This document shows, piece by piece, positions 1 to 4,919 of a stretch of 4,919 bases of DNA. The position numbers were made by a program, and so were the translations under genes. The notes beneath the pieces were generated by a model. It saw only the letters and a list, made by a program, of their open reading frames with translations, ran no database searches and had not been told where the DNA came from. This stretch comes from a virus. Taxonomy: Duplodnaviria; Heunggongvirae; Uroviricota; Caudoviricetes. Numbering within the stretch: position 1 is the first letter of the stretch; each line of letters begins with the position of its first letter. The DNA lies in the IMG/VR virus record IMGVR_UViG_2531839582_000013; one strand, 5' to 3'.

Positions 1-4
1 CCAC

Positions 5-30
5 AAAAAAGCCCGCCTGAACCGGCGGGC
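5..30 (-). terminator. Putative rho-independent terminator downstream of lom
   Basis: Plus-strand stem gcccgcc (11..17), loop tgaacc (18..23), stem ggcgggc (24..30), preceded by aaaaaa (5..10). On the minus strand this is a 7-bp GC-rich hairpin followed by six U, about 25 nt past the lom stop. Confidence 0.5.
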
Positions 31-53
31 TGTCATAACACTGTGTTACCTGG

Positions 54-656
54 CTAATCAGAATTTATAACCAACACCCACGATGAACCGTCAGTGCGCC
101 AGTCACCACTGCCGGAGCCTTCATAAGCAATATCAATGGCCACGGATTCGGTCGGGTTAAACTGCACGCCAGCCCCCCACGCCAGAGACGTGTTGCTGTG
201 GCGACCGTCATCACTTCCGGTCAGCACATCATGCGTTTTCCCCGTATTGTCGGTCACCTGCAGATAATCCCCGGAGAAAGTCGACACACGGCTGTAAGCC
301 ACACCCGCCATCGCATACGCGCTGAACCATTCATTCACGCGCACAGACGGTCCCGCCATCACGCTGAACCAGCGGTTACGCACGGAATCCTCATGCCAGC
401 GGGTATCGCTGTAATGCGTTTTTTGCTCATCTTCAGCGTTGGCATAACTGAATGACGTAATCAGCCCCAGCGTGTCCGTAAACTCATAACGGTATTTCAC
501 GTTAATCCCGTTCAGATTATCGCTGCCGGGAGCGTTCGTACGGGCATGAAGATACCCTGCGCTCAGTGTGGCCTGCTGCTCAGACGCCCATGCAGGCGCA
601 CCGGATACGGCCAGACAGATGGCTGCGGACAAAATGGCTGCATAAACTTTACGCAT
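54..656 (-). CDS. lom: Lom outer-membrane protein (Ail/Lom/PagC family 8-stranded beta-barrel); 3' end frameshifted as sequenced
   Basis: 200-aa ORF with a signal peptide (MRKVYAAILSAAICLAVSGAPAWA) and Lom-family motifs (NGINVKYRYEFTD, WFSVMAGP, AYAMAGVAYSR, AIDIAYEGSGSGDWRTDG). GAGG Shine-Dalgarno 4 nt upstream of the ATG at 656. The last 10 codons are out of frame: the adjacent frame over 58..87 encodes FIVGVGYKF followed by a stop at 58..60, the family's canonical C-terminus. Confidence 0.88.
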   Translation of the reverse strand: MRKVYAAILSAAICLAVSGAPAWASEQQATLSAGYLHARTNAPGSDNLNGINVKYRYEFTDTLGLITSFSYANAEDEQKTHYSDTRWHEDSVRNRWFSVMAGPSVRVNEWFSAYAMAGVAYSRVSTFSGDYLQVTDNTGKTHDVLTGSDDGRHSNTSLAWGAGVQFNPTESVAIDIAYEGSGSGDWRTDGSSWVLVINSD

Positions 657-680
657 AATTACCTCTCGCTTTTCTGCAAT

Positions 681-704
681 AAAAAAGGCGCCATTTCTGG
701 CGCC
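681..704 (-). terminator. Putative rho-independent terminator downstream of J, between J and lom
   Basis: Stem ggcgcc (687..692), loop atttct (693..698), stem ggcgcc (699..704), with aaaaaa at 681..686. On the minus strand this is a hairpin followed by six U, 19 nt after the J stop codon at 724..726. Confidence 0.5.
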
Positions 705-723
705 CGTATTGGGGTTATAAAAT

Positions 724-1743
724 TCAGCTGATACTGATGCCTGCGGTGGCTTTCTTCATCACCACAACCAGCAAATCGCTGATACTTGCTGTGGGATACC
801 AGTCATTTACCAACCATGCTGACACCGAAAACTCCAGTGTCATGTGACCGTGACCGGCAGGCATATCAATAACACCACTGTAAATCAGCGTATTATCCAG
901 CGCGGTACGGTTATAAATTTCAGCACCGTTTTTCCGTACTATCAGACGGCATGAGGAGTAAATATCAGTATGCTCTTTCTCATGTTTAGCGCCGCTGAAT
1001 GCCACCGCCGGAATAACAATCTGCCGGTCAAACGGCTGATCGTCATAAACCCTGACGGTAATGGTTCCTGATGGCCACCGCTCCGGTGCACGGGAGTCCC
1101 GGGGGAAAGCTTTGCCCACTGTTTTAACGAGATCGCCTTCAATCTGGTTGGCGGACAGTTTTCCCAGAACCCGACAGTTCTCGTTAATCGTGACGTTGTT
1201 GAGCGTCCCGGAGTTCGCATTCACGTTACCGCTGATATCGGCATTTTTCGCCGTCAGCCACCCGTCCGGTGTCAGGGAAAATGCCGGAGGATTACCGCCG
1301 CTGGTAATGGTCGGAGCCGTCAGGCGTTTCAGGAACACGTCGTTCATGAATATCTGATCGCCCTGACCAACAAACATTGGTCTTGTGTTGCCATTAGACG
1401 GATCAATAAACGCGATACGGTTAGCGGCAACCAGGAACTGGCTCAGCTTGCCTTCTTCCGTGTCCTCCATGCTGAGGCCAATACCCGCGACATAATGTTT
1501 GCCGTCTTTGGTCTGCTCAATTTTGACAGCCCACATGGCATTCCACTTATCGTTGGCGTCCTTCCACTCTTTCGAAAACTCCTCCAGGTCAGGCGCAAGC
1601 TGACCGTTATCAATCTGCGTCCACAGCTCCTGAGCCAGATGGGTTTTCCCTATCTCGCCTTTGAAAAAATCCAGATAGCCTGATGCATCATCACTCGGCT
1701 GACCGACAGCCTCCACGAATGCCGATTTGCCAACGGTGTTCAC
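724..1743 (-). CDS. J: J C-terminal fragment (receptor-binding end); the open frame actually extends upstream to about 2130 without a start codon
   Basis: 339-codon ORF from a GTG at 1743. It matches the gpJ C-terminal region ([13 protein letters not shown]..., [91 protein letters not shown]). The same frame stays open and J-like up to the stop at 2131..2133. Part of the pseudogene above. Confidence 0.6.
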
Positions 1744-3011
1744 ACTGCGAACGTAAAAATAATAATCATGGCCCGGTTTGATATTGATACTGGCGGCTAT
1801 CCAGTACAGTGCCGTACCAAGATAACGCGCGCTGGTTTCAACCTGCCTGATATCCGCAATCCGTTTTTCCGAGAACCAGAACTCAAACTGTACCGTCGGG
1901 TCATAAACCGCAAGATGCGGCGTGGCGGTTATCTGAAAATAGCCCGGCGTCAGCTCAATCCGCGACGGCGCTGCCGGTGCGGCAATCCGGAACGATACCG
2001 ACGCCGGATCGCCCTGCTGCCCCCACGCATTTACTGCCCGGACTGTCAGCCTGTAGTTCCCCAGCGCCAGTTGTGTGAAGCGGTAAGTGGTTTCCGTCGT
2101 CCGGGCCGTGCTGACCAGCCGCTCACGCCGTCATCCGCTGCCACGGTCAGGCGAAGCAGAAGCTCACGCCCTTCACCACCTTCGGCGTTCCCAGCGGCCA
2201 GACCTGATACTCCCCGCTGTCTGCGGTGACTTCGCGGTCAGTGCTGCACGCTGGCGGCGTGACACCATTACCGTGCCGCTCTGGTCGCCGTCAAAGTGCG
2301 CCCCGTTATCCACGATGGCCTCTTTTTCCGGTACATGCTGCACGGCGGTGATGGCATACGTGCCGTCTCGTTCTCACGGATACTCACGCAGCGGAACAGG
2401 CGCTGGCGCACGTCGGCAGCTTCAGCCCCCAACGCTGTATTCAGCAACGCCGTCAGGAACACGGCTCACTTTCACCTTCACGCCGTCGGTGACGGACTGA
2501 CCTCCACGCTGACCGGATCCCTCCGTCAACCAGGCTTATCAGCGTGGTCCGGAGATGGCAGCGTGATTTCACGGTCGAGCGTCAGCGTCCGGGTCTGGCT
2601 GTTCACCGCCAGCACGCGCCCCCGGTGCGATACCGCATAGTCATCATCGCAGATTTCAATGACATCCCCGGTACATGGCGAAGCCCTTCGCACCCACGCT
2701 GAAGTCCACGGTCTGCGTTTCCAGCAGTTCGTTTTAATCAGCCACAGCCCGGCGCGGTGGCCTGCCCCCGGCTGGTACAGCCAAAGCATCCATCTTCGTG
2801 ACGTTACGACCGTAACGGGCAATGGCCTGCGTTCTCACAAGCTCTGTCGCCGTCTCCCAGCCGTTATTCGGGTCAATCCAGTTCACCTCAACGGCATTAT
2901 GGCGGTCCTTCAGGGCGCTGAAGCTGTAGCGGAACGGCGCCCATCATCCGGCATCACCACATTACTGCGGTTATAGGTCCACACCTTATCGAGGTCGGTC
3001 CTGCACGAACG

Positions 3012-4079
3012 TCAGCGTCTGCCCGTTCCATACCGGCATACAGCGCATCGCGAGCAGAAATCACTGAGCACATCCCACGCCTTACGCTGGTGGTCAGAGG
3101 CATTACAGGTGATGCGCGGCTCCGTGCCGCCAAAACCGTCCGGCACCGACTGGTCGCAGTACTGGCCGATGACATACAGCGCCCATTTATCCACATCTGC
3201 CGCACCAAGACGTTTCCCCATGCCGTAGCGCGGATGGGTCAGCATATCCCACAGACACCAGGCCATGTTGTTGCTGTATGCTGGCTTAAACGTTCCGTCC
3301 CAGATACCGCTGTATTGCCGCGTCTGCGGGTTATAATTCGACGGCACCTGCAGAATACGCCCGCGCAGATGATAATTACGGCTCACCTGCTGGCTGCCGA
3401 ACTGCTCCGAGTCCACCTGCACGCCGACCAGTGCCGTGTTCGGGTAGCACTGTTTCACATCGATAATTTCGGTGTATGACGACCAGAGCGTTTTGTTCTG
3501 CAGCTGGTCTGTGGTGCTGTCCGGCGTCATCCTGCGCATCCGGATATTAAACGGGCGCGGCGGCAGGTTATCCACCACCACCGAGGCCAGATACTGTGAA
3601 GTGGTTTTACCCTTAATGGTGATGTCTTTTTCCGTCACCCAGCCACCGTTACGTTGTATCTGAACCAGCAGGCGGACTTCCGATGGATTCCTGTCCCCCT
3701 TTGAGGTGGTTTCCACCAGTGCCTGCACGCCGAAAGTAAAACGCAGACGGTCAATGTTTGCCGACGTGATGGTCCGGGTGATCGGCGTGTCATATTTCAC
3801 TTCTGTACCGAGCACCGTCTCGGAGCCGGAGGATTCAAATCCCTCCGGCGGTGTCTGCTCCTGCTCACCGGCCCGGAACACCACCGTGACGCCGGATATA
3901 TTGGTATTCCCCTCACTGTCCAGCACCGGCGTACTGTTCAGCAGCACGCTTTTTAATCCATCCACCGGACCTTCAACCGGCCCTTCGCTGATGGCATCGA
4001 TCACACTCAGCAGCTGCGTGGACTTCAGGTTATCTTTCGCTTCGCGCGGGGTATGCCCCTTACTGCTGCCTTTACCCAT
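3012..4079 (-). CDS. J: J N-terminal fragment (intact 355-codon frame ending at the first frameshift)
   Basis: ATG at 4079 with GGAG 8 nt upstream. Begins MGKGSSKGHTPREAKDNLKSTQLLSVIDAISEGP and matches the gpJ N-terminus up to ...KAWDVLSDFCS, then leaves the J frame at about 3050 and terminates at 3012. This is part of the pseudogene above, listed because gene callers will emit it as a separate ORF. Confidence 0.6.
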   Translation of the reverse strand: MGKGSSKGHTPREAKDNLKSTQLLSVIDAISEGPVEGPVDGLKSVLLNSTPVLDSEGNTNISGVTVVFRAGEQEQTPPEGFESSGSETVLGTEVKYDTPITRTITSANIDRLRFTFGVQALVETTSKGDRNPSEVRLLVQIQRNGGWVTEKDITIKGKTTSQYLASVVVDNLPPRPFNIRMRRMTPDSTTDQLQNKTLWSSYTEIIDVKQCYPNTALVGVQVDSEQFGSQQVSRNYHLRGRILQVPSNYNPQTRQYSGIWDGTFKPAYSNNMAWCLWDMLTHPRYGMGKRLGAADVDKWALYVIGQYCDQSVPDGFGGTEPRITCNASDHQRKAWDVLSDFCSRCAVCRYGTGRR

Positions 4080-4101
4080 TCGTCATGCTCCATAAACGAT
4101 A

Positions 4102-4121
4102 AAACCGCCCGGAGGCGGTTT
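4102..4121 (-). other. Perfect 8-bp stem-loop in the I-J intergenic spacer; function unknown
   Basis: Plus-strand aaaccgcc (4102..4109), loop cgga, ggcggttt (4114..4121). On the minus-strand mRNA this is GAAACCGCC-UCCG-GGCGGUUU followed by UAUCGUUUAUGG, then the J Shine-Dalgarno and ATG. Confidence 0.25.
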
Positions 4122-4139
4122 CACATAAAACATTTTGCA

Positions 4140-4811
4140 TCAGCGACCAATCACCACAACCTGACCACCGTCCCCTTCGTCTGCCGTGCTGATCTCCTGA
4201 GAAACCACGCGTGACCCCACGCGCATTTCACCGTACAGAACCGGCAGAACATTGCCCTGGGCAACCATGTTATCCAGTGAGGAGAAATAGGTGTTCTGTT
4301 TGCCGTTATCCGTTGTCTGTGTACGGGGAGTTCTGGCTTTCGGTGCCAGCATCTGCGCCACACCACCGAGCACCATACTGGCACCGAGAGAAAACAGGAT
4401 GCCGGTCATACCACCGGCCCCAATGGCTGCCCCCCATGCTGCAAGGGTGGCTCCGGCGGTAAAGAATGATCCGGCAATGGCGGCAGCCCCCAGGACAATC
4501 TGGAATACGCCACCTGACTTGGCCCCGGCGACTCTGGGAACAATATGAATCACAGCGCCATCAGGCAGAGTCTCATGTAACTGCGCCGTTAACCCGGACG
4601 TGCTGACGTCCCGCCCGGCAATCCGTACCTGATACCAGCCGTCGCTCAGTTTCTGACGAAACACCGGGAGCTGTGTGGCCAGTGCGCGGATGGCTTCAGC
4701 CCCCGTTTTCACACGAAGGTCGATGCGGCGGCCAAATCGTTGCAAATCCCCGTAAAGGCAGATGCGCGCCATGCCCGGTGACGCCAGAGGGAGTGTGTGC
4801 GTCGCTGCCAT
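4140..4811 (-). CDS. I: Tail assembly protein I (lambda gpI-like)
   Basis: 223-aa ORF, the same length as lambda gpI and near-identical by recall (MAATHTLPLASPGMARICLYGDLQRFGRRIDLRVKTGAEAIRALATQLP...). It has a Gly/Ala-rich hydrophobic C-terminal half. The start lies 103 nt inside the 3' end of K and the stop is 60 nt upstream of the J ATG, the same spacing I recall for lambda. Confidence 0.93.
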   Translation of the reverse strand: MAATHTLPLASPGMARICLYGDLQRFGRRIDLRVKTGAEAIRALATQLPVFRQKLSDGWYQVRIAGRDVSTSGLTAQLHETLPDGAVIHIVPRVAGAKSGGVFQIVLGAAAIAGSFFTAGATLAAWGAAIGAGGMTGILFSLGASMVLGGVAQMLAPKARTPRTQTTDNGKQNTYFSSLDNMVAQGNVLPVLYGEMRVGSRVVSQEISTADEGDGGQVVVIGR

Positions 4812-4919
4812 TTGTCGGTATACCTCTCTCGTTTGCTCAGTTGTTCAGGAATATGGTGCAGCAGCTCGCCATCACCACAGTAAATGGCGGCATGATTCGG
4901 CACCGATGAACCAAAACAG
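4709..4919 (-). CDS. K: Tail assembly protein K (lambda gpK-like, NlpC/P60-type C-terminal region); 5' end lies beyond the window
   Basis: The frame is open from the window edge to the stop at 4709..4711. The C-terminal peptide ...VPNHAAIYCGDGELLHHIPEQLSKRERYTDKWQRRTHSLWRHRAWRASAFTG... matches the gpK C-terminus by recall. It overlaps I out of frame. Confidence 0.85.
   Translation of the reverse strand, partial: CFGSSVPNHAAIYCGDGELLHHIPEQLSKRERYTDKWQRRTHSLWRHRAWRASAFTGICNDLAAASTFV

Follow-up and report, generated by a model that had tools for sequence, protein, structure and literature searches.

The C-terminal receptor-binding domain of a lambda-like gpJ from E. coli p0305293.10 is of the 1A2/VT1-Sakai type and very probably directed to OmpC

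Introduction

The exchange of J specificity regions among lambdoid prophages is textbook biology, and phage 434 is the classical OmpC-using lambdoid phage. The C-terminal receptor-binding domain (RBD) of lambda gpJ is Ig-like, and its four bottom loops enter the porin and trigger tail opening (Ge & Wang, PMC11101478). Lambda gpJ has been deposited in the closed state (PDB entry 8xck) and in the open state with LamB (PDB entry 8xcj), and A8 gpJ in the closed state (PDB entry 9wca) and in the open state with the OmpC of E. coli EDL933 (PDB entry 9wcb). The published 'specificity region' of J comprises residues 960–1132 (PMC6646904). Within this region lambda needs residues 1012 and 1107 to gain the use of OmpF, and positions 1012, 1048–49, 1077–78 and 1107 are hotspots that evolve fast in natural J homologues and are rich in variants and indels (Maddamsetti et al., PMC6646904).

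The chimera gpJ 1A2 has the body of lambda gpJ and the C-terminus of a gpJ that occurs naturally in E. coli (Brödel et al., Nature 2024, PMC11338833); its DNA is given as 'GpJ 1A2' in Supplementary file 1 of that work, with the C-terminus recoded. Screening of the chimeras used a lamB-deleted recipient, and the receptor tests used cells that lacked both lamB and ompC and were supplied with OmpC variants. With the OmpC of EDL933 delivery by 1A2 was efficient, with that of MG1655 (K-12) it was not, and 21 of the 23 OmpC variants were served by A8, by 1A2 or by both (PMC11338833). A follow-up preprint on STEC (10.1101/2025.02.28.640725) again gives EDL933 OmpC, and not LamB, as the receptor recognised by gpJ-1A2 and applies this chimera to O157 strains. 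Independent work reports the use of OmpC by a long-tailed EHEC phage (PMC12502783). The source data for Extended Data Fig. 2 in Supplementary file 10 of PMC11338833 list the same 1A2 and A8 values in panel C (EDL933) as in panel B (MG1655), which conflicts with the main text and with the source data for Fig. 1b, where 1A2 reaches ∼98% on EDL933; the identical values may be a copy or extraction slip.

Sequence of the locus

The window is the whole stretch of DNA that was analysed, positions 1..4919, and is the complete contig AQBT01000032.1 (4919 bp) of E. coli p0305293.10 in the draft assembly GCA_000358555.1. The assembly is of the 2013 era, and the contig is a 4.9-kb orphan that represents a multi-copy repeat. 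The gene order is K–I–J–lom, all on the minus strand, as in phage lambda, and searches with the whole window returned lambdoid coliphages and prophages with 92–95% identity, in which the matched regions are annotated as K, I, J and Lom. The exact sequence is absent from the complete E. coli genomes and phage records searched (top match 95.4%) because of its mosaic structure and deletions. The features are as follows.

4712..4918, minus strand: 3' end of K, a C40 peptidase-type tail protein, cut by the contig end (frame analysis and annotation of matching phages)
4140..4811, minus strand: gpI, tail-tip assembly protein, intact, 223 aa (Pfam PF06805)
724..4079, minus strand: J, the whole gene as in the contig, split into stop-free pieces (six-frame analysis)
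2126..3100, minus strand: deletion zone inside J (alignment to L015/L014)
1580..1690, minus strand: patch diverging from lambda in the alpha-helical shaft region, lambda codons ∼811–850 (identity scan)
1177..1579, minus strand: central straight fibre or tail-tip fibre segment of J (Pfam PF09327)
727..1176, minus strand: gpJ C-terminal RBD, 150 aa, 1A2/VT1-Sakai type (translation, Pfam, alignments and model)
724..726, minus strand: J stop codon (ORF list and sequence)
686..705, minus strand: terminator-like hairpin and T-run between J and lom (scan)
54..656, minus strand: lom, Ail/Lom outer-membrane protein (Pfam PF06316)
10..31, minus strand: terminator-like hairpin and T-run after lom (scan)

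The two hairpins are strong and bracket lom as a unit of its own, and the terminators of phage 434 are annotated at the same places. GenBank has a protein entry of its own for each of several fragments of J, among them ENG40751.1 ('putative host specificity protein J') and ENG40748.1 ('fibronectin type III family protein'). ORFs on the plus strand, antisense to J, were set aside as being without support.

The minus-strand translation of 727..1176 gives the last 150 aa of gpJ. An earlier note, made from the letters of this DNA, had quoted this C-terminal sequence exactly as translated here; the interval that it gave, 727–1175, has the correct start but ends one base short of the codon boundary at 1176. 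Its proposal that J tracks lambda closely and that the final ∼150 residues then diverge is borne out by alignment with lambda gpJ (NC_001416): 283 of 320 positions (about 88%) are identical in the 318 aa upstream of ...NENC, against 42% identity over the last 150 aa. The boundary is sharp. In 45-nt windows the nucleotide identity to lambda is 0.84–1.0 upstream, drops at window position ∼1196–1200, which corresponds to lambda codon ∼975, and is 0.49–0.67 from ∼1196 to the stop codon. Codon ∼975 falls inside the published specificity region 960–1132 (PMC6646904) and just downstream of residue 964, at which the 1A2 chimera was fused (PMC11338833). The motifs PFDRQIV and DMPAG, which the note had named as shared, are both among the conserved islands in the alignment, and a four-way alignment places the differences from lambda in clusters at loops around 1007–1014, 1042–1053, 1068–1080 and 1098–1112. 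The high identity to lambda J residues 982–1132, loop residues included, that marks a LamB-binding allele is absent, the loops having been replaced. Since the C-terminal 150 aa are this far from lambda residues 980–1132 (only 42% identity was found where near-identity had been looked for), the note's account of the lambda sequence was correct. A shorter divergent patch reported near 1590..1660 is likewise present, with an identity to lambda of 0.64–0.80 at ∼1690..1560. This patch is an allele common to other prophages, because the DNA is 100% identical to theirs there: 285–286 of 285–286 aligned bases in window 1869..1580 are the same in L011, L014 and L015.

Fold and relatives

The RBD is matched by the Pfam family PF12421 (Ig_GpJ_C), described as 'Tip attachment protein J, C-terminal receptor binding domain', with a score of 129.9 bits (curated threshold, 26.2; E = 8.7e-38). 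The match spans profile positions 1–135 of 135 and residues 338–468 of the 468-aa J piece, i.e. its extreme C-terminus, and at this E value the homology to the gpJ family is not due to chance. The order of the Pfam domains in J is canonical (FNIII-A ... Ig_J, Ig_J_second, Phage_Tail_Tip, Ig_GpJ_C). A search for homologues gave mostly short or partial fragments of J, several of them frameshifted, and these were removed before modelling; AlphaFold was then run from the cleaned alignment of 16 sequences. The resulting model of the RBD is all-beta, with a mean pLDDT of 79 and a core mostly above 85. According to Foldseek it is most similar to PDB entries 9wca, 9wcb, 8xck and 8xcj (E values of 1e-15 to 6e-18; TM scores of 0.76–0.77 for the two A8 entries and 0.78 for the two lambda entries), and in the structural comparison that had been suggested earlier it superposes on lambda gpJ with a TM score of 0.78. 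The Pfam and Foldseek matches thus show that the fold and the family are those of the lambda RBD. Family, domain order, gene order and Ig-like fold all agree with a lambda-type gpJ/TipJ; the single uninterrupted frame of ∼1130–1165 codons is lacking, which concerns the integrity of the contig and not the identity of the domain.

Within this family the RBD has very close relatives. Its 150 aa are identical at 148 positions to the J of VT1-Sakai (the Stx1 prophage of O157:H7 Sakai, Sp15, AP000400) and at 149 positions to that of PhiR5_1. In tblastn searches it is 98–99% identical to VT1-Sakai, PhiR5_1, 2G7b, OkiPb01704, PPompW prophages and many Stx2a phages, and 52 phage records match it at 95% or more. 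The cluster at 90% identity to which the J fragment of the window belongs comprises 7519 members, nearly all of them from E. coli. Identity to the other characterised alleles is much lower (A8, 59%; lambda, 42%; 434, 40%), and the high identity to the specificity domain expected of a 434-type or an A8-type allele was found for neither, whereas identity to the 1A2/VT1-Sakai allele exceeds 95% over the whole 150-aa specificity domain. Judged by its sequence, the RBD is a known and common E. coli allele, found also in O157:H7 prophages, and is not new.

Integrity and mosaic structure of J

The earlier note took J to be a normal gene and overlooked some 35 frameshifting deletions at 2126..3100. 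Six-frame analysis gives stop-free pieces of J at 4082..3015, 2943..2737, 2834..2529, 2373..2176 and 2130..727, the last of which is the 3' piece and comprises the last 468 codons. Alignment of 3099..2126 to the near-identical L015/L014 shows 969 matches, two mismatches, 33–35 deletion events and no insertions. The deletions remove 37 nt in total (C12, G9, A8, T8), nearly all as single bases; about half are at non-repeated bases, so that they are not confined to homopolymers, and their mean spacing is 28 nt. The flanking segments of J have no indels, and filling the deletions from the reference gives a single ORF of 1129 codons with no other lesion. A further 1-nt deletion at window position ∼87 alters the last ∼10 residues of lom (C-terminus ...WRTDGSSWVLVINSD), giving a product of 200 aa where relatives have 199 aa; the match to PF06316 (E = 5e-117) covers profile positions 1–190 of 199 only. 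Programmed frameshifting in J is excluded by the ∼35 separate events.

As J is frameshifted many times in the sequence as written, no full-length fibre is possible from it. This could mean that J is a true pseudogene in the strain, i.e. a decayed tail gene with the RBD as a non-functional remnant, and the five or more stop-free pieces, the ∼35 deletions and the additional lesion in lom fit such a history, as does the J of VT1-Sakai (AP000400 981..4453), which is annotated as two overlapping CDS with the comment 'truncated protein by a mutation'. Natural decay does not, however, produce a pattern of 33–35 deletions against two substitutions and no insertions within ∼1 kb, spread about 28 nt apart without restriction to homopolymers, flanked by segments that are 100% identical to relatives and free of indels, and fully repaired to a 1129-codon ORF by filling. 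Given this pattern, and given that the contig is an orphan from a draft assembly of that era and covers a multi-copy repeat, the deletions in J and lom are best explained as sequence error; we consider genuine decay of J improbable. The ∼35 deletions in J together with that in lom are thus most likely sequencing or assembly errors, the lom deletion probably being an error of the same kind, and J is presumably intact in E. coli p0305293.10. VT1-Sakai itself is a well-known prophage that has a disrupted J and the same RBD allele as the window. The probable sequence errors make AQBT01000032.1 unsuitable as a reference sequence for J.

The part of the locus that comprises K, I and the first two-thirds of J has a different set of relatives from the RBD, namely prophages of the L015/L014/L011 type (820/820, 990/1000, 255–256/256 and 285/285 bases), and exact copies of the gpI protein are found in many E. 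coli genomes. A recombination junction is seen inside J at ∼1580, upstream of which the DNA is 99–100% identical to L014 and L015, whose J ends in a 434-type RBD. Downstream of ∼1580 the best DNA matches switch to OkiPb01704, PhiR5_1 and VT1-Sakai. The segment 1177..1579 is lambda-like as protein, but at the DNA level it is closest to those relatives that the RBD also matches; the top nucleotide match is L003 (393/403), and the L015-type relatives fall away. In contigs that have a gpI identical to that of the window, J is intact, with 1130–1165 codons, and ends in one of four RBD types: the 434 type (97%), the A8 type (99%), an A8-related type (81%) and the type of the window (95%). Mosaic replacement, which had been put forward as the source of the divergent C-terminus, therefore explains the RBD, in that one and the same gpI precedes J proteins with four different RBDs. 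The accompanying view that the distal ∼150 aa, lying in the host-specificity module (residues 960–1132), are an allele other than the LamB-binding domain of lambda agrees with the 42% identity found. The mosaicism of this J is ordinary modular recombination.

Receptor

The earlier note held that the receptor of this variant cannot be assigned from sequence. It had also called for a comparison with characterised J proteins, and this comparison overturns the statement: the match is to the 1A2/VT1-Sakai type and not to the LamB binder of lambda, and 1A2 uses OmpC. The 1A2 text was machine-read from the PDF and contains indel errors, and was therefore compared with a custom frameshift-tolerant dynamic-programming aligner. 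Identity was found at 135 of 140 cleanly readable codons, the remaining 10 of the 150 not being cleanly comparable owing to OCR indel errors. Of the five differences, three lie next to OCR damage; the two credible ones are D125N and S148T, the window having D125 and S148 where 1A2 has Asn and Thr. These are also the sole differences between the RBD of the window and that of VT1-Sakai. Because the two differences are the same, the domain of 1A2 is of the VT1-Sakai type and agrees with that of the window at 148 of 150 residues. The same kind of alignment to A8, also from OCR text, gives 88 matches in 134 readable codons. The near-identity to 1A2 and the OmpC dependence of the latter make the receptor of this RBD allele assignable as OmpC, in an allele-specific manner, and we infer from the sequence that the window's own variant (D125, S148) would behave like 1A2. 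We hold it to be highly probable that this is a lambda-like gpJ onto which an RBD of the 1A2/VT1-Sakai type was recombined near codon ∼975, with OmpC as its receptor and EDL933-type alleles preferred.

Among close relatives the RBD type is polymorphic at three residues (K67R, D125N/G and S148T). Residue 67 is encoded by window 976..978 and aligns with lambda position 1048; residue 125 is encoded by window 802..804 and aligns with lambda D1107. As D125 is thus aligned with a receptor-switch residue, the range of OmpC alleles could differ from that of 1A2. These polymorphisms may represent natural fine-tuning of the OmpC alleles that can be used, with a host range for the D125/S148 form that differs from that of 1A2, a possibility that we regard as tentative. 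A related reading, in which the variant with D125, S148 and K67 recognises other OmpC alleles than 1A2 does, or another porin, draws on the position of K67R and D125N/G at sites aligned with the hotspots 1048 and 1107 (PMC6646904) and on the different OmpC alleles that 1A2 and A8 already accept (PMC11338833). With only two of 150 residues differing from VT1-Sakai and 1A2, and with at least four mutations needed for the porin switch of lambda (PMC6646904), we think this unlikely. That the RBD still binds LamB, as a fold and family common with the lambda RBD and some conserved motifs might suggest, is barely conceivable, as the identity is only 42%, the differences are concentrated in the loop regions and 1A2, the domain of which is essentially identical, came from selection in a recipient without lamB and depends on OmpC (PMC11338833).

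In the preferred assignment to OmpC, the RBD belongs to the central tail fibre of a lambda-like E. coli prophage and has the Ig-like beta fold of the lambda domain with the sequence of the widespread VT1-Sakai/'gpJ 1A2' allele, which recombination has joined, near lambda codon ∼975, to a J body resembling that of lambda. On the model of lambda–LamB and A8–OmpC, three copies of the RBD at the tip of the fibre would insert their bottom loops into the trimeric porin, and this insertion would trigger opening of the tail. The porin for the allele of the window would be OmpC and not LamB, the EDL933 type being preferred and not the K-12 type.

Comparison with the four characterised alleles places the domain further. 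In 1A2 the junction with the lambda-like body is at the same place as in the window, but the J body of the window is a natural mosaic and not that of lambda, and is frameshifted in the contig. The lambda RBD shares PF12421, the Ig-like fold, the C-terminal place in J and short motifs including GIS; it differs from that of the window in the four loop regions and by a one-residue deletion in the window next to 1107, and its receptor is LamB where that of the window's allele type is OmpC. The nearest solved structure is that of A8 gpJ (PDB entries 9wca and 9wcb; TM score of 0.77, ∼60% identity). A8 is an OmpC binder too, but it has a four-residue deletion at the lambda-1012 loop and a five-residue insertion at the 1048 loop, and it accepts K-12 OmpC, which 1A2 does not. 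The gpJ of phage 434 is the product of the same gene at the same position and has the same class of receptor as that of the window, but its RBD, with larger insertions in the loops, is an allele of its own.

Conclusions

The C-terminal domain of this J is an already known, experimentally characterised OmpC-type specificity domain, real but ordinary. Comparison with the characterised alleles lambda, 434, A8 and 1A2 now allows receptors to be assigned to J variants of this kind, and engineered delivery vectors already use the 1A2-type RBD as a module to target OmpC.
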